A stretch of DNA of 63,368 nt, the filler included, from Collodictyon triciliatum (Eukaryota): the NCBI GenBank assembly GCA_043381765.1. It is 6 parts of 6 records of this genome, joined end to end, with 100 filler letters (N's around TTAATTAATTAA, not from the genome) between each part and the next. Parts side by side here need not be neighbours in the genome. Positions count along the whole stretch, not along the records: positions 34,518 to 45,906 come from JBHJMP010002413.1; 5 more parts are not named here. The stretch is one strand, 5' to 3'. The notes below the pieces were generated by a model. That model was not told the origin of the DNA, did not search any database, and saw only the letters and a list, made by a program, of their open reading frames with translations. Position numbers and translations under genes: made by a program. This document shows, one piece after another, positions 39,395 to 50,184 of the stretch. Within the stretch, counting starts at the first letter, position 1. Each line of letters begins with the position of its first letter.

Positions 39395-42300
39395 ATGTTC
39401 AACGCGTCGTCTTCAGGCTCCTTTGCCGAATCCTCGGAATCTTTCAGCAAGAACAGCCGTAACCAACCCAGAAAGCAAAAAGTGGTCTCGAAGGAGAAGA
39501 AAGTGAGGAAGACAAACAAGGAGGAAGAGAGAGAAAGAGAGGAGGAGAAGGCCAGGGAGCTATTAAAAGACATACACGACTTGGAGCCTGACTGGAGCCC
39601 AAACGACTTGTCCCTTCTGAAAGCAACGCAGCTGGAGATCCACAATCGACCAGAAACCTCCTTGACGGAAAAAATCGGACTACTGACGAGGCTAAAAAGA
39701 CTCACACTAACATCCAATGCCTTCGAGTCCCTCCCTACCCAACTATCATTACTTACAAAGCTGAGCTGGCTTGATCTAAAAGAAAACAAGCTGAGCGATC
39801 TGCCAGAGGGCTTTTATAATCTGTCTGAATTGGTCTTTTTAGACCTGAGCATGAACAAGTTTGCTTTCATGGTTCCTCATGATTGGTACCTTCTTACAAA
39901 ACTTACCAGTTTGGTTATATATGGGAATCCTGTAAGTCAATAATAACATCCATGTCTTCTTCTTTTCTTCTTTTTCTTCTTTTTCTTATCCTATTATTTC
40001 CTTTTACTACTGAAATGAATGTTTAAATTATTTACCGAATAACCTCTTCAGTAATTGCGGTAGTAATATATTCGAAGCATGACTGACGATGTTATTTACC
40101 CTGATATATATGGTACATAGGTTGAATCTTTATCAATAGAAATAACCTATTTAAAAAACCTCAAGTCCATACAAATATTGGGAGAATCAGAAAACACTAT
40201 ACGGACAGCACCTCGAGGGATATCCCTATTGCCTTGCTGGAAAGAAAAAAATGAGCACACAAAGTCGATTCACGAACTTAATTTGTTCAATCATCCACCT
40301 TTTTATGTCGATATGAATCTCTCAGACATTTCTCATTTAACGAAATCATGGACGCAGTTTGAAATGATAGACCTATCCAAAAATAAGGTAAGCTTGCTTT
40401 TTTTTTTATCTACTTCAAAATTGCAGCACCTTAAGCAACACCACACCAAGATCAAAATCGTAATGCATACTATTTATCTCAGCTTGATAAAATACCGGAA
40501 TCCTTTCGAGACATGACTAATCTTTCATCGTTGACCATAAGCTACAATCAAGTAAGTAACGCACTGGTCTGATTATCAAATGTATCATACTCTTGCAAAA
40601 CATAAAAGCAATATATATATATATTCGTTTTAATTTTTTTAATAGTTTACCGAAATTCCACCCTGTATTTTAAACATGCCGTGGATTGAAACGCTGGATG
40701 TTGCATTCAATCAAGTAAGAACTAGAGAAATCCGAATAGATTTTTAATTTTTTTTTATTCTTCCTTTCATTTTTGTGCAGGATGGTGGAATAGATTTTTA
40801 ATTTTAACAGTATCACTAAATCCTAGATAACATTTAGATATTCGTAGTTATATATATATATATCATTATGTCTTATTGATGACTGACGAACCGTAATGGA
40901 TTAGATAACTGTCTTAGATGAGATGATAATAGGACTATCCAACATGAAGATTCTCAACGTCAGCAATAATTTGGTAGCTATCATAATAAAAATGTGACAG
41001 TATAAATATTCGAAAATTAAAAGAACTTTAAATAACATTTTAGTTAAGCTCTCTGCCTGTTATGTATGCTCTCTCCAATCTAGAGATTCTCAATGTTTCT
41101 GAAAATCCCTTGCCTCTAGCCCAACGCACCTTATTCAATATGATGAAATTGTCTTTTGATAACTTGTCTTTTTCTGGATGTGACCTTGCAGTCATACCGG
41201 ACGAATTTATGCTTTTACCAAAGAAAGCCAATGTTGATTTTTCAAACAATCAGGTATTTCAAGATTAAGATAACACAAATAACTCTTTTTTTTTAAAAAA
41301 AAAAAATCGTAACAAACAAATAAACAAATTTCATTTAGATTTCTACGCTGCCACCATGGTTATTTGAGCTTACTGGATTAACTGCTTTAAATTTATCTGA
41401 TAATCAAGTGAATACACCAATAATGGGTTTTCATTTTTTTTTCATTCAATTACCATGTTTATCTTATTTTATCACAAAAAATTCATCTATATTTTTTAAT
41501 TTTCGATTTTTTTTTATATTTTGAAATACAAACTGTTCCTGAGATATACGTATATTTGTACAAGATAACGGCCTTGCCCGAGAATATTTCGAATATGACG
41601 AATCTACATTCATTAAATGTTAGAAATAATAAGGTAAGCTTTATGATAGATGTAATACTTTTGATTTAAAAGTGTACTATGTATCAAAATCTTGGTGCGC
41701 TCTTTCTTCTTTCGTTTTCCTTTGTTTTTCCTTTGTTTTTCCTTTGTTTTCCCTTTGTTTTCCCTTTGTTTTCCCTTTGTTTTCCCTTTGTTTTCCCTTT
41801 GATCTGAATGAGAGAGGGCATCATTTCCCCTTTATTCGATTCATATAACGAGATTGACAACATAAACCCCCCATATTATTACTGAGCGAACATATTTACA
41901 GATAAACAGGCTTCCAACTTCCATAGGAAATTTAGAAAAATTACTGAACGGATTCAATGTCGAAGCAAACCCCATCTCTGATATACCACTGAATGTTATA
42001 AATCAAGGTTCCGAGGCGATTTTGAACTTTGTATACGAGTCTACCAAAGGTACTACTCATAAATGGACCCAAGGAAGGTTGCTAGTGCTCGGAGAGGGAG
42101 AAACAGGGAAAACGACCCTGATAAAATCAATATTACAGAAATCTTTATTTTTCAAAAGCACAGTTGACGCCCAGAGGGAAAGAACCGATGGAATAGTAAA
42201 TATCGATATCGATCATTCCGTTTTTGGAGGATTTTTGCAATCAAAAATATCTGCCAAGATCTGGGACTTTGGAGGACAGGAAGAGTTCCAAGTTACCCAT

Positions 42301-45300
42301 CCTTTTTTTCTGTCTGCGGGTGCACTTGTCCTAATATTATATAGACTCGATCAAAGCAAAGAAAAAAACAATCTTAATCGTTGGGTCAAGATGCTACAAG
42401 ATTTTGCTCCTGGTTCAAAGGTCATTATTGTGGGTACCCACAAAGATAAGCAAGTTCCAGAGTATGCGGCCGAGATGAAGGCAGAAATTGAAGGGTTGAG
42501 TGTGGTTACGAATGATATTGAGTTCATACATACTGGATTTCGAGTCAGCAACAAAAGTGGAAAGAAGATATCTGATCTAAAACAAGTTATATATAAAAGC
42601 ATGCTGCAATTGGATAATGTAAACAAGGAAATACCACAATCGTATACCAAATTGAAGGGATATTTGGAAGAAATGGGAAGGAGACTCAAGTACATGAAAT
42701 TAGAGGATGTCTATAATTACGCACACAAGAATTTTAACTTGATTCAAAGGAGGTGTAATTCTGCTTTGAAGTTTCTACACGAATTAGGCACAATCGTCTG
42801 GTACTCATCCAAAGATAATATGAAATCTATCATATTTCTGGATCCCATGTTCCTGATAAATGTTTTCAAATGTGTATTTAGCTTCAAAGGGATTGGAAGG
42901 AGCTCATCTGAAATCATCCTCATTTCCAATCTCAAAGAAAAAATCAAACAAGAATTTGGAATCGATCTTGAAGAAGACGCCTTCTTGGTGGTGGTTAGTA
43001 TATTCGATCATTTTGGGCTAGGAATACATTTTAACAAGGAATGCATTGCATTTCCTTCGTTGATGGACGAGTGTGAAAACTTGAGCACCATATGGAACAA
43101 TACCCCTGAATCCAACTGTGTTTCAGAAGTTTCGCTTGAATTGCATACAACTTCCGAAATGCAATTATCTGATAAGAGCAACATCATTACTTACGCATTA
43201 AGAATCGTCAAAGGAACACCACCAGGTGTCGAATACGATAATATATTCTTTCGCAATGTGGCGCTTGTGCATTTGACCATTAAAAGACCTACGGTTGAGA
43301 TAGGCCTCAGCACTAACGAACCAGCCAACGATTACGAATTGGCCCCAGGAGAACACATGAGAGCACTTTTTTTGATTCAGCGCAGCAGCATTAAAATAGT
43401 ATTAAGAAAGTACATTGCGGAAGAGGAGGATGGTATATTCATTGATACCTTCCGAGTTTTGAATAGTTTTAGAAAGCAAATTATATCGATGCGGCAAAAT
43501 TTCGTCAAATTGTGTTGTATTCCATGCTACAAATGCGTCAGTNNNNNNNNNNNNNNNNNNNNNNNNNNNNNNNNNNNNNNNNNNNNNNNNNNNNNNNNNN
43601 NNNNNNNNNNNNNNNNNNNNNNNNNNNNNNNNNNNNNNNNNNNNNNNNNNNNNNNNNNNNNNNNNNNNNNNNNNNNNNNNNNNNNNNNNNNNNNNNNNNN
43701 NNNNNNNNNNNNNNNNNNNNNNNNNNNNNNNNNNNNNNNNNNNNNNNNNNNNNNNNNNNNNNNNTCTCTCTTTTATTTTTATTTTTATTTTTAAGTAACT
43801 ATTTTTTTTATTTCAGGATAAAGTTTTAATCCATTTTATCGTAGGCATTTCAACCAGGTTTATTTCGCAGATGAAGAGAAAGAAAAACATGACGAACACA
43901 ACTTATGGCCACATTCAAGACTTTGGCTCGATGGATAAAGAGCTTGATAGTATATGGATCACCGAAAATATTCAACTTGTGGAGTACTTAGGGAAAGGGG
44001 CGTTTGGAAGAGTTTACCGAACTCAAAGAATACGAGAGAAAGATACAGTGGTAAAGATTCAAACAATCCAACAAGTGGGAAAGATAAATCTATCTGATTT
44101 TATCCAATCGATAATTCTGGAAAGTAAGTTGATTCACGAGTGTCGTGAATGCGAGAATATTGTCCAACTTTTTGGTGTCTTTAGAAAAGAAAATGAATTC
44201 TATATGGTGATGGAGTTTGCCGGCGTTTCTCTGAAAAAAATCATGGAAAAAAGGAAAGAAGACAGACCGACCCTGTCCCAAGTGGCCAATTTTTCTAGAC
44301 AGATATGTGCAGGATTAATGTTCATGCACTCCAAGGATCTGTACCATGAGGACCTCAAAGCGGATAATATCATGATAGTAGATGGTATTGTAAAGATTGT
44401 CGACTTTGGTATTGTCAGCCGGCGTGAGAACGAAAAAGTTGGGTCTCACTTACCTACGCGCTACGGAGAATGGAAACAGGACGGAACCTGCAATTGGCAA
44501 GCGCCAGAGATTCTGAATTGCGTGTGTAAACCTTACTATTATGATGATGACTCGCAATACGGGTGCGATGGTATCAATATTGGCCACCGAGGAGAGCCGA
44601 GCAATGTATATGCTTTCGGGATGCTTCTTTGGTTCATGTTTTCAGGGATGGAGCCATTTCTTGGAGAAACTCATGCAGAGAGCTTCACTATTCGTGGACT
44701 GAGGCCAGGTATACCTGCAGAAACACCCATCGAATTCCAGCATTTGATTAGGGCAAGCTGGAAACAGAATTACAAATATCGCCCGAGCCTACAGGCTATT
44801 GACAAAGTCCTGGGTGAGTTGCTGGCGAATAACTTGTCCATACCAAAGGATGTATTGGGTGCTATAATCCCTATGAAATACACTGCCATCGCTGATATGT
44901 ATCGTGGCGAGCTTATTGAGTTTCTGTCTTGCCATGGATGCGACGCTCTTGGGAAAAAGATGGCAAACGAATTTTGGGATACAGTCGATGAAGTAGCAGA
45001 CCGATTGAACGAGGATGACTTGATGCGAATTTACCATATCCCGCACTCTGAATTGACCATTCTGAGAGATATTTCTGAAGAGAAGCCGAAGACTGATTCC
45101 ACAGCCGCCAACAAGAAGCAGTTGGTTCGAGAATTGAGTCAGTTTGAACTGATTCAGCACATCAATAAGAAAGGGGAGAGCTTCAAGAAGTTTTCCGACA
45201 AGGTGAAAGCCTTGAAAATCAGTGGCGATATTCTGGCGAAACTCGATCAGCCAGACATCTACACGCAGTACTCTGTATCAGAAGAGGAAATCAAGACTGC

Positions 45301-45337
45301 CGCTCGTCTTTTACAGGACGGATTGATCGTCGACTGA
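39395..45337 (+). CDS. Roco protein: LRR-Roc-COR-protein kinase with C-terminal tandem SAM-like domains; exons 39395-39931, 40121-40387, 40483-40551, 40646-40714, 40905-40973, 41044-41253, 41339-41407, 41565-41633, 41902-(gap), about 43846-45337
   Basis: 23-aa LRRs; Roc motifs LLVLGEGETGKTTL, RTDG, IWDFGGQEEFQVTHPFFLS, IVGTHKD, VSNKSG; COR motif IPQSY..ALKFLHELGTIVWY..IFLDP; kinase motifs GKGAFGRVY, VVKI, HEDLKADN, DFG, GTCNWQAPE. The COR-to-kinase join is inferred across a 222-N gap. Confidence 0.88.
43543..43764. other. Intra-scaffold sequence gap (222 N) inside the Roco gene
   Basis: N run without the linker 12-mer. Confidence 0.95.
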
Positions 45338-45906: not shown

Positions 45907-46006
45907 NNNNNNNNNNNNNNNNNNNNNNNNNNNNNNNNNNNNNNNNNNNNTTAATTAATTAANNNNNNNNNNNNNNNNNNNNNNNNNNNNNNNNNNNNNN
46001 NNNNNN
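45907..46006. other. Artificial contig spacer N44-TTAATTAATTAA-N44
   Basis: Same 12-mer linker at 45951-45962. Confidence 0.97.
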
Positions 46007-46078
46007 CAGGGATCGATACTACTTGCATATGCAACAAATCAGTTATTTCAAATACTTCCGATACTTGCAATATATGTT

Positions 46079-48157
46079 ATGAGTTATGTTAATGCTCTCT
46101 TCATCGAAGCTTCCAGAGTTAACTACAAGGATTATGATTCCATGTTCTTACATTCCTTGGGAGCAGATGACACAGAAAATCATCAAGAAAAAGTCTTAAG
46201 CAATGACATAAAGGCCGAGGAAACTCATCATCTGACAATTAATTTGGAAGAATTAAGAAAAATATTCAAAAGTTCCAAACTAATACATGAAAAATATGCT
46301 ATAATAAAGTCAATAGTGAGGAGAGATGTTTCTCTCGTAACATCTTTCAGCTTGCTCGGCGTAGCGGCAGGACTTGTTCTTCAAACTTATGTATATTTAC
46401 TGATTCAACTATCTTGGCTTGATTTTGAGAACTCTATAATTATAAAAAATCCGTGGCTTTTTCTGTCAACTTATGATGTCATTATATTTACATTTTCCAA
46501 CACAATAACTTTTCTTGGAAAAAGAACATTTCTGTTGCTATCAGATCCATTAAAACCACGATGTTTTTTACAAAATATGGTTCGAATCCCATTGATTCCT
46601 GAATTTTTTCGTTTAATGGAGGAGCGGAAAAACCAGAGAAAAGAAAAACTGTTTGTCCACGTTAGAGAAAATGAGTCAATGTCTCTAATTCACATAAGTA
46701 ATCTCAGTATTATTCCGAATTGTGATGGTCAATATGCACATAGAGTTGAGGCCGATGCAAAAGTAAATGAGGAAATATTGGACTTTAAGACCTATATCAA
46801 CAACCCACATTTTGTGACAAAATCTATACAGACTAATTACAATTATCTCTCAAATAAAAAAATATCGATGATTTTTCCTCCTGTCGACAAGTTCATTAAC
46901 TTCAAGGAGAAATTCAGATCGCAAACCGTGAACAGCTATAACAAGAGAAAAATAAGGCAACTTATAATTTCAATTTTATACAAGAGGAGATATTCTTCAA
47001 TTTGCATTCTGGTTGTTGGGTTGTATGAGCTTACTCATGATAGTAATTGGCTTTCATACTTTGTGTCCATAATCACTTTGGTATCTATCGCAAACGAACT
47101 TTCTTTACTGTTCGATTTTACGAAGGAACAATTTATCATTTGTTTTTGCTACTTTGAGAATATATTCGTCCTTTTCAACGCAATGTTAATGTACATTTCT
47201 GTATCAGATTTGTTTGGATGGGCCAGCTTTCGAGCATACACAACTTTTCCTTTGTTATCCATTTTCTTGGTTCGGCTAATAATGTATGACGTATACTACA
47301 TAGACCGAGATAAACTCAATATTCGAATGAAGGCAATTAGGGTAGATGAGAATTTTGAAAAGGAAATGCCTTTCACAAACTATTCTATGTGTATGCTTCA
47401 GCAGCATTTGGAAAGAAACAAAATTGAAAGAGCAAATGAATTTGAAAAAGTTTCAGATAAGTGCATGGCTATTCATCTGAATCAAGACCCTCTAAATGAG
47501 AAGAGAAGCCAAATTTACTCAGAAATGATTCATAAGGAAAGAATGTGTTACCTTAAAATGTTTGGATGGAATCACATACTTTTTTATCTAGCTGGTCCGA
47601 TCGTATTCATAGGCTTATTGCTTGTTCTTCAAAGCCCAATATTGGTTTATCCTAATGAGAGAATATTTAATGTTATAATCATTCGCGGAAAAAATTCCAC
47701 GTTGGTAAGAGGAGCTGTCTTTAATATTATTCTGTTTTGTATGAAAAGACTTTTCCGGTTCTTATCAAATCCACTCCTATCAACCACAATTACGGAACCA
47801 TATTTTCAATATCCATTAACTCGCGCTGTCCTTTCTGAGATGAAAAAGAATCAAATTGGGCCAGGAATTATGGAAGAAATAAATAGAAAAAGGGAGGAAG
47901 TACTCACACATAGGCAGGAGAAAGAAAAAGAGGAAAAAGAGGAAAAAGAGGAAAAAGAGGAAAAAGAGGAAAAAGAGGAAAAAGAGGAAAAAGAGGAAAA
48001 AGAGGAAAAAGAGGAAAAAGAGGAAAAAGAGGAAAAAGAGGAAAAAGAGGAAAAAGAGGAAAAAGAGGAAAAAGAGGGAGGAGAAAGAGCAGACGATATT
48101 AAAATCAAGAGTGAAGAAAATTCAAGCTTTGTTTTTGAATACTCTTTGGATATATAG
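46079..48157 (+). CDS. Hypothetical multi-pass membrane protein, 692 aa, intron-less ORF, possibly 5'-partial
   Basis: Long ORF with several hydrophobic stretches in three clusters and an (EKE)n tail; no family recognised. Confidence 0.7.
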   Translation: MSYVNALFIEASRVNYKDYDSMFLHSLGADDTENHQEKVLSNDIKAEETHHLTINLEELRKIFKSSKLIHEKYAIIKSIVRRDVSLVTSFSLLGVAAGLVLQTYVYLLIQLSWLDFENSIIIKNPWLFLSTYDVIIFTFSNTITFLGKRTFLLLSDPLKPRCFLQNMVRIPLIPEFFRLMEERKNQRKEKLFVHVRENESMSLIHISNLSIIPNCDGQYAHRVEADAKVNEEILDFKTYINNPHFVTKSIQTNYNYLSNKKISMIFPPVDKFINFKEKFRSQTVNSYNKRKIRQLIISILYKRRYSSICILVVGLYELTHDSNWLSYFVSIITLVSIANELSLLFDFTKEQFIICFCYFENIFVLFNAMLMYISVSDLFGWASFRAYTTFPLLSIFLVRLIMYDVYYIDRDKLNIRMKAIRVDENFEKEMPFTNYSMCMLQQHLERNKIERANEFEKVSDKCMAIHLNQDPLNEKRSQIYSEMIHKERMCYLKMFGWNHILFYLAGPIVFIGLLLVLQSPILVYPNERIFNVIIIRGKNSTLVRGAVFNIILFCMKRLFRFLSNPLLSTTITEPYFQYPLTRAVLSEMKKNQIGPGIMEEINRKREEVLTHRQEKEKEEKEEKEEKEEKEEKEEKEEKEEKEEKEEKEEKEEKEEKEEKEEKEEKEGGERADDIKIKSEENSSFVFEYSLDI
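47921..48076. repeat. (GAGGAAAAA)n in-frame 9-mer repeat encoding EEK
   Basis: Read directly within ORF 46079-48157. Confidence 0.95.
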
Positions 48158-49179: not shown

Positions 49180-50108
49180 NNNNNNNNNNNNNNNNNNNNN
49201 NNNNNNNNNNNNNNNNNNNNNNNNNNNNNNNNNNNNNNNNNNNNNNNNNNNNNNNNNNNNNNNNNNNNNNNNNNNNNNNNNNNNNNNNNNNNNNNNNNNN
49301 NNNNNNNNNNNNNNNNNNNNNNNNNNNNNNNNNNNNNNNNNNNNNNNNNNNNNNNNNNNNNNNNNNNNNNNNNNNNNNNNNNNNNNNNNNNNNNNNNNNN
49401 NNNNNNNNNNNNNNNNNNNNNNNNNNNNNNNNNNNNNNNNNNNNNNNNNNNNNNNNNNNNNNNNNNNNNNNNNNNNNNNNNNNNNNNNNNNNNNNNNNNN
49501 NNNNNNNNNNNNNNNNNNNNNNNNNNNNNNNNNNNNNNNNNNNNNNNNNNNNNNNNNNNNNNNNNNNNNNNNNNNNNNNNNNNNNNNNNNNNNNNNNNNN
49601 NNNNNNNNNNNNNNNNNNNNNNNNNNNNNNNNNNNNNNNNNNNNNNNNNNNNNNNNNNNNNNNNNNNNNNNNNNNNNNNNNNNNNNNNNNNNNNNNNNNN
49701 NNNNNNNNNNNNNNNNNNNNNNNNNNNNNNNNNNNNNNNNNNNNNNNNNNNNNNNNNNNNNNNNNNNNNNNNNNNNNNNNNNNNNNNNNNNNNNNNNNNN
49801 NNNNNNNNNNNNNNNNNNNNNNNNNNNNNNNNNNNNNNNNNNNNNNNNNNNNNNNNNNNNNNNNNNNNNNNNNNNNNNNNNNNNNNNNNNNNNNNNNNNN
49901 NNNNNNNNNNNNNNNNNNNNNNNNNNNNNNNNNNNNNNNNNNNNNNNNNNNNNNNNNNNNNNNNNNNNNNNNNNNNNNNNNNNNNNNNNNNNNNNNNNNN
50001 NNNNNNNNNNNNNNNNNNNNNNNNNNNNNNNNNNNNNNNNNNNNNNNNNNNNNNNNNNNNNNNNNNNNNNNNNNNNNNNNNNNNNNNNNNNNNNNNNNNN
50101 NNNNNNNN
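49180..50108. other. Intra-scaffold sequence gap (929 N)
   Basis: N run without the linker 12-mer. Confidence 0.95.
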
Positions 50109-50184
50109 AGCGGCGCTACCGAGAGAGCCATTTCACATTAACAAACAAGCAAATAGTCCAGCCCGGATAACTCATACTTACTCC

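Follow-up and report, generated by a model that had tools for sequence, protein, structure and literature searches.

The 63,368-nucleotide (nt) stretch of Collodictyon triciliatum DNA analysed here (assembly GCA_043381765.1), which we call the window, carries in its part from JBHJMP010002413.1 a gene in which single leucine-rich repeats (LRRs) are encoded by exons of exactly 69 nt. Are such exons cassettes of a working recognition system, or the trace of how a repeat array grew? The gene, hereafter gene 1, is an LRR-Roc-COR gene of the Roco family. With moderate confidence, we favor the second answer, namely that the repeats multiplied by duplication of exon-plus-intron units and that some introns were later lost, in an ordinary expressed Roco signaling gene. 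An earlier note on this DNA had leaned toward the first, proposing a modular system comparable to that of brown algae. What we report is an RNA-supported observation on gene structure, with no functional consequence shown.

Exon register and identity of the gene

Five exons of gene 1 (40483-40551, 40646-40714, 40905-40973, 41339-41407, and 41565-41633) are each 69 nt, or 23 codons, long, and a further exon at 41044-41253 is 210 nt long and encodes 70 residues. All six are preceded by AG and followed by GT, lie in one open frame in phase 0, and are cut one residue past the conserved LRR asparagine ("N-x"), with terminal residues ..YNQ, ..FNQ, ..NNL, ..NNQ, ..DNQ, and ..NNK. The sequence confirms what the earlier note had said of the five short exons in position, bounding dinucleotides, phase, and cut point. 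The same register and phase are found at the flanking boundaries 39931/40121 (..YGNP/), 40387/40483 (..SKNK/), and 41633/41902. All eight introns in the LRR-coding region, each GT-AG and 70-268 nt long, thus occupy a single site among the 69 that a 23-codon repeat offers; we calculate that, after the first, the other seven would all fall there by chance with a probability of (1/69)^7, or ∼1e-13.

Two parts of the earlier description hold in part. The 210-nt exon does contain three LRR units, but these measure 22, 25, and 23 residues and do not make an exact triple of 69 nt. One repeat per exon is correct for the five 69-nt exons, but these account for only 5 of the ∼16 LRRs of gene 1. The others are fused, the 558-nt first exon taking ∼4 of them, the 267-nt and 210-nt exons about three each, and the last exon the rest. 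The single-LRR exons are always exactly 69 nt; units within multi-LRR exons range from 22 to 25 residues. A scan of the whole window for AG, an open frame of 66, 69, 72, or 75 nt, and GT, with an LRR-like tail, returned 12 matches, whereas 50 shuffles averaged 0.4 and never exceeded 2. Five are the 69-nt exons of gene 1 and two are 69-nt exons of gene 2, which with gene 3 is one of two LRR paralogs in the window (Table 1); one stems from an AG inside the first exon (39860-39931), and four are non-LRR chance matches.

RNA corroborates part of this structure. Seven public sequencing runs hold small shares of the stretch (0.05-0.09), of which four were compared with the window; parts that they do not cover are uninformative. 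A 245-nt contig from a freshwater metatranscriptome (run X4, record 21), with two letters unlike the window, follows the path 40515-40551, 40646-40714, 40905-40973, and 41045-41113. Because the contig joins them, three of the eight predicted junctions (40551/40646, 40714/40905, and 40973/41044-45, each seen exactly) are real and the exons concerned are included; it spans four consecutive exons, with none skipped. A second RNA contig covers 42912-43179, in the Roc-COR exon. A few near-identical 151-nt DNA contigs come from independent metagenomes, and near-identical strains of the source organism are present in freshwater and subsurface metagenomes. Only two environmental substitutions lie in LRR exons: 41044 T>A, seen in the RNA contig and in a DNA contig of another run, changes Leu to Ile in the first codon of the 210-nt exon, and 41606 A>C, in environmental contigs, is synonymous.

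The domain content bears out the assignment to the Roco family that the earlier note had made. In the open reading frame (ORF) 41866-43542, Pfam finds Roc (3.2e-20), Ras (5.1e-13), and COR-A (3.3e-10, residues 257-358) and reports no COR-B model, and the G1, G3, and G4 motifs of Roc are intact in the translation (GEGETGKT, DFGGQ, and THKD). COR directly follows Roc, and the region can be aligned to Diphylleia Roco proteins up to about residue 417. In its LRR-Roc-COR order and its intact GTP-binding motifs, the gene resembles Roco/LRRK-type proteins (Roc PF08477, COR-A PF16095). The N-terminal LRRs, which give an LRR_8 match of 1.2e-12 on the first exon, belong to the same transcript, as indicated by the alignment of the spliced model across the whole LRR domain of the Diphylleia rotans protein P0002 and by the three LRR junctions in RNA; the junction 41633/41902, which would tie the LRRs to Roc, we infer from GT-AG and frame only. 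Downstream, a protein kinase ORF begins 257 nt past the COR frame on the same strand, with a 222-N gap (43543-43764) intervening and no RNA across it. Its GKGAFG, HEDLKADN, DFG, and APE motifs are readable, and it is probably the C-terminal part of gene 1. A search with this ORF among longer proteins gave three unrelated matches only, and a kinase is absent from the precomputed Pfam lists of P0001 and P0002, which concern those two Diphylleia relatives only. In Roco proteins in general, the LRRs form an interaction surface, and Roc-COR is a GTPase switch over the kinase; the LRRs and Roc-COR of gene 1 would be expected to play the same roles.

We give very little credence to the explanation that the pattern is a product of chance or assembly, or the locus a pseudogene. 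N gaps are indeed numerous in the window, and one separates COR from the kinase; genes 2 and 3, moreover, appear truncated. However, the three exact GT-AG junctions in the RNA contig largely refute it, and the open state of all exons, the intact G1/G3/G4 and kinase motifs, the excess of scan matches over the 0.4 expected in shuffles, and the near-identical DNA contigs in independent metagenomes all argue in the same direction.

Origin of the exon array

In the reading that we favor, the LRR array would have grown by tandem duplication of a unit consisting of one 69-nt exon and its intron. Later loss of some introns would then have fused adjacent units, giving the four-LRR first exon, the 210-nt triple, and the giant exon of gene 2. 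The exact length of 69 nt would be confined to single-LRR exons because the constraint on length relaxes after fusion, as expected under duplication with intron loss. The 69-nt exons would by now be old, mutually diverged, and constitutively spliced as far as seen, splicing of the uncovered exons being predicted; the layout, frame-neutral for skipping and duplication, would yet be a historical footprint and not a working generator of diversity.

The paralogs speak to the age of the register. The giant exon of gene 2 ends in ..NIIANM with gt next, in the same register as gene 1, and N-x boundaries are found at 53769, 54480, 54624, and 54822 in gene 2 and at 56300 in gene 3, for 13 splice sites in this register across the three paralogs. 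The register is common to genes 1, 2, and 3 and is therefore older than their divergence. Gene 2 matches Pfam LRR_14 at 3.6e-74, with 44 matches to our LRR hidden Markov model (HMM, described below) at an independent E-value (i-E) of <0.1 across the gene, and its giant exon contains no internal nucleotide repeat at E < 1e-3; the huge array is therefore old. LRR-HMM matches are found in gene 3 as well. One repeat per exon is not the rule for LRRs in the C. triciliatum genome.

That most LRRs of the three paralogs are intronless (a single gene 2 exon has ∼45 of them, and the first exon of gene 1 has four) would also suit a different history, in which an intronless array repeatedly gained introns by independent insertion at a favored site of the repeat, so that the shared register reflects target preference. 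We regard this as unlikely. Three of the eight exon ends of gene 1 read ..AG, a weak protosplice-like feature, but the other five do not, and the first bases of the following exons vary (G, C, T, and A). The introns share no sequence, hence there is no introner-like family. Thirteen gains at one and the same codon boundary, spread over three genes, demand a very strong site preference, and duplication of a unit is the simpler explanation for seven single exons that all measure exactly 69 nt.

Relatives of the gene carry the comparison further. Protein searches with the Roc-COR exon covered 5.8 billion clustered proteins and 1.84 billion representatives, and no relative above 37% identity was found in those sets. 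The nearest nine, 31-37% identical in Roc-COR, are all Diphylleia rotans transcriptome proteins by their source names; all other matches are at or below ∼30%, animal LRRK1-type proteins at or below 27%. Gene 1 and Diphylleia have in common the conserved block WDFGGQ.EFQVTHPFFLS.GAL. The architecture of gene 1 and P0002 is alike, with ∼4 LRRs, a module containing LPCW, ∼9 LRRs with an irregular pair, and Roc, and one unit indel separates the two. Units E6c, E7, and E9a match their positional counterparts in P0002 with scores of 51, 58, and 43 (the within-gene maximum is 49), and the best match of exon 41339-41407 is the positional unit V8, with a score of 58. A reading of the LRR units as positional orthologs throughout, taken from the BLAST alignment, was dropped, as colinearity was not significant.

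Several points weigh against the preferred reading. The RNA evidence for the LRR exons is a single 245-nt contig from a single metatranscriptome, and no RNA reaches exons 41339-41407 and 41565-41633. The pre-Roc LRR region is very unequal in the nine Diphylleia relatives, with Roc starting at residues 160-981 in eight of them, and the LRR arrays of the family are dynamic over long times. Exon 40646-40714 best matches the non-positional P0002 unit V7 (score 58), and an old rearrangement of units is therefore possible. Against P0002, unit order shows no significant colinearity (monotone path, p = 0.11; strict diagonal, p = 0.35; 20,000 permutations), and we therefore claim conservation of the architecture but not of every unit. 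Finally, in metagenome contigs, a single-protein search confirmed 0 of 370 pattern matches, and a family-alignment search gave 546 relatives, the best 80 of which are all at or below 30% identity and resemble generic Roco genes. No genomic DNA of a close relative was found in these metagenome contig searches, so duplication of exon with intron and repeated intron gain are not discriminated by a relative's gene structure.

Exon exchange, skipping, and comparison with known systems

The geometry of the 69-nt exons is indeed frame-neutral, as the earlier note had pointed out: at 69 nt and phase 0, they could be skipped or duplicated without frameshift. An active system might use them in this way, with cassettes alternatively spliced or exchanged among paralogs, genes 2 and 3 serving as reservoirs, in convergence with brown-algal ROCO genes. 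Three same-register LRR paralogs lie within 18 kb, and the two without Roc resemble the "reservoir" loci of PMC3341825. LRR number varies widely across the family, and relative to P0002 there is a unit indel as well as an off-diagonal match of one unit.

Exchange should leave traces in the DNA. An LRR HMM built from 35 LRR units and run over six frames of the window, with limited sensitivity for old relics, gave matches at i-E < 0.1 only within exons of the three genes. No relic or antisense LRR exons were found in the introns of gene 1; the seven matches that this gene has at i-E < 1 all fall in its exons, on the + strand. By blastn with 7-nt words, there is no similarity among the exons or introns of gene 1, nor between them and genes 2 and 3, except for a 37-nt element and an adjoining 18-nt direct repeat. 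Pairwise nucleotide identity among the five 69-nt exons is 33-51% (mean 0.436, maximum 0.507), compared with a background mean of 0.446 and 95th percentile of 0.536 among 595 pairs of in-exon gene 2 LRR units; their intron flanks are 25-53% identical. Within this one window, there are no near-identical recombined paralogs or exons, and exon identities are at background level, which substantiates the earlier note's own caveat that the exons are mutually divergent.

Skipping fares no better. The only RNA contig over the LRRs includes every exon that it spans, and none of 10 isoform comparisons in seven Diphylleia Trinity genes differs by an LRR unit; the differences seen are N-terminal truncations, alternative C-termini, and one retained intron of 49 residues. 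The near-identical environmental DNA contigs contain no structural variants, save two joints with 21-nt sides. These, 39541>41718 and 40759>41500, were dismissed because their sides lie in low-complexity sequence. With relic exons absent, nucleotide comparisons of exons, introns, and paralogs negative, and no skipping in the RNA contig or the 10 Diphylleia comparisons, the comparable modular recognition system that the earlier note had put forward is not borne out, and we judge active cassette use or exchange to be quite improbable. A fuller version of it seems to us similarly improbable: a freshwater protist that branches deeply and is related to Diphyllatea would have arrived on its own at single-LRR exons of 69 nt in phase 0, across a clustered Roco/LRR family, and would diversify a recognition surface by splicing these cassettes or by trading exons with the LRR-only genes next to them. 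If it were true, exon-modular LRR receptors would have a third convergent case besides those of brown algae and Tetrahymena, this time with a Roc-COR-kinase output, and either cassette use or exon exchange would bear on whether protists repeatedly gain diversity in recognition through such receptors.

For ROCO genes of brown algae, published work does describe shuffled exons that each encode one LRR, as the earlier note had said (PMC3341825; PMC11378527). The type I LRR exon of Ectocarpus and Saccharina is 72 nt, encodes 24 residues of the form GxxPxxLxxxxxLxxLxLxxNxLx, and is cut after NxLx (PMC3341825); it is called phase 2 in PMC11378527. At these loci, relic exons are present in introns and on the antisense strand, near-identical paralogs have recombined, transcripts are alternatively spliced, and some sites are under positive selection (PMC3341825; PMC11378527). 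Like them, gene 1 is an LRR-Roc-COR gene with equal-sized LRR exons that are a multiple of three and permit frame-safe gain or loss, with nearby LRR-only loci that carry the same exon type. Unlike the algal exon, that of gene 1 is 69 nt, in phase 0, and cut after N-x; nearly all algal LRRs are single-exon, whereas 5 of ∼16 are so here; and the algal proteins are LRR-ROC-COR without a kinase, whereas a kinase ORF follows COR in gene 1. The relic exons, near-identical recombined paralogs, and LRR splice variants of brown algae were sought here and not found in one window, one RNA contig, and the Diphylleia isoforms. In exon size and cut point, gene 1 is unlike the algal genes, and its layout would therefore be neither inherited from the algal one nor homologous to it in register, which points to an independent origin.

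A second point of comparison is provided by the LRR genes of Tetrahymena, which have 90-bp exons with phase 2 introns (PMC6564038) and are not Roco genes; the young copies of their LRR exons number in the tens of thousands and are linked to an element like a long interspersed nuclear element. Both are protist LRR families with exon arrays of one length and one phase, read as duplication of exon-intron units. In contrast to Tetrahymena, the window contains seven 69-nt phase-0 exons, all old and diverged, and blastn revealed no link to a repeat element. Given its exon length, phase, and cut point, the layout of gene 1 is analogous, not homologous, to the brown-algal and Tetrahymena cases. In vertebrate genes with one LRR per exon, such as those of glycoprotein-hormone receptors and the LRR exons of NLR genes, LRR units are likewise symmetric-phase exons and are usually read as the trace of exon duplication, with other exon lengths and phases and in extracellular or NLR contexts.

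Among the literature matches listed, there is no mention of a 69-nt LRR exon or of ROCO in Diphylleia, Collodictyon, or CRuMs, and on LRRs in separate exons and their intron phase the Tetrahymena study is the one relevant match; subscription journals lay outside the scope. Our results add a lineage remote from both brown algae and ciliates whose Roco-type LRR arrays keep a strict one-repeat-per-exon register, and they support the idea that the expansion of solenoid repeats produces such layouts again and again as a by-product.

Paralogs and other features of the window

Coordinates of the three LRR genes are collected in Table 1.

Table 1. Exons and domains of gene 1 and of its paralogs in the window
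Feature	Position	Strand	Remarks
Gene 1, first exon seen	39395..39931	+	Frame open from 39374; first ATG at 39395, predicted start codon; K/E-rich lead, then ∼4 LRRs without intron; ends ..IYGNP, donor gtaagt
Gene 1, 267-nt exon	40121..40387	+	One LRR and irregular LPCW module; ends ..DLSKNK
Gene 1, single-LRR exon LDKIPESFRDMTNLSSLTISYNQ	40483..40551	+	Phase 0-0; LRR HMM i-E 0.0059; 3' junction to 40646 in RNA
Gene 1, single-LRR exon FTEIPPCILNMPWIETLDVAFNQ	40646..40714	+	Divergent LRR; both junctions in RNA contig; fits LRR-tail pattern; below reach of LRR HMM at i-E < 1
Gene 1, single-LRR exon ITVLDEMIIGLSNMKILNVSNNL	40905..40973	+	Both junctions in RNA contig; LRR HMM i-E 0.12
Gene 1, 210-nt exon	41044..41253	+	Three LRR units, middle one irregular; 5' junction in RNA contig
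Gene 1, single-LRR exon ISTLPPWLFELTGLTALNLSDNQ	41339..41407	+	LRR HMM i-E 1.1e-5
Gene 1, single-LRR exon ITALPENISNMTNLHSLNVRNNK	41565..41633	+	LRR HMM i-E 2.4e-4
Gene 1, last LRR(s), Roc GTPase, COR, CxxC stretch	41902..43542	+	Frame still open at start of 222-N gap
Protein kinase ORF	43799..45334	+	Pfam Pkinase 2e-36, PK_Tyr_Ser-Thr 1.1e-35
Gene 2, single uninterrupted exon	50110..53769	+	At least 1220 codons, ∼45 LRRs; emerges from 929-N gap (49180-50108)
Gene 2, 3' exons	53915-54133, 54331-54480	+	LPCW module in the first; boundaries from sequence
Gene 2, 69-nt single-LRR exons	54556-54624, 54754-54822	+	Boundaries from sequence
Gene 3, LRR exon	56950-56300	-	Intronless; ends ..VSANP, gt next; Pfam LRR_8 3.3e-20
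Gene 3, intron	56299-56091	-	Boundaries from sequence
Gene 3, following exon	56090-55905	-	LPFW module, then stop; boundaries from sequence

No Roc domain was seen in genes 2 and 3 within the window. The LRRs of gene 2 are arranged in about five super-blocks, with linkers containing Y(Y/F/H)EP between them. At 54823-55904, the convergent genes 2 (+) and 3 (-) both fade out, each after an LPCW or LPFW module and a few LRRs; they may be truncated paralogs, LRR-only genes, or the result of an inverted misjoin. The irregular LRR insert that carries this motif (..R.AP.GI..LPCW.., ∼30 residues, ..W..F..IDLS.N) is located at 40121-40387, 53915-54133, and, on the - strand, 55905-56090, and is common to all three paralogs. 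Neither the insert nor the 267-nt exon of gene 1 as a whole has a Pfam match; that exon can be aligned to the LPCW modules of P0001 and P0002, and Diphylleia rotans Roco proteins carry from none to about eight copies of the module. It could be an LRR cap or insert particular to this family.

The introns of gene 1 contain two repeat features. The 37-nt element at 40749-40785, in intron 40715-40904, recurs inverted and 94.6% identical at 55364-55400 and is flanked in gene 1 by the 18-nt direct repeat (40734-40751 and 40788-40805). Over 40747-40791, many metagenome contigs from other organisms stack at 90-95% identity and high depth, and the element may be a short dispersed repeat. Within the last LRR intron, a microsatellite of 11-nt period (CCTTTGTTTTT-like, 10 copies) occupies 41698-41807; similar short-period repeats are common across the window.

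Elsewhere, pairs of 44-N runs 12 bases apart recur every ∼11.5 kb (11412-11511, 22923-23022, 34418-34517, 45907-46006, and 57378-57477); these look technical (scaffolding or masking), not biological. A 716-codon open frame at 46007-48154, without a Pfam match, encodes several hydrophobic stretches and ends in a long (KEE)n tail encoded by a microsatellite. At 29176-33595 on the - strand, four short frames match successive parts of a myosin head (best E 1e-8), which indicates a putative intron-rich myosin gene upstream.

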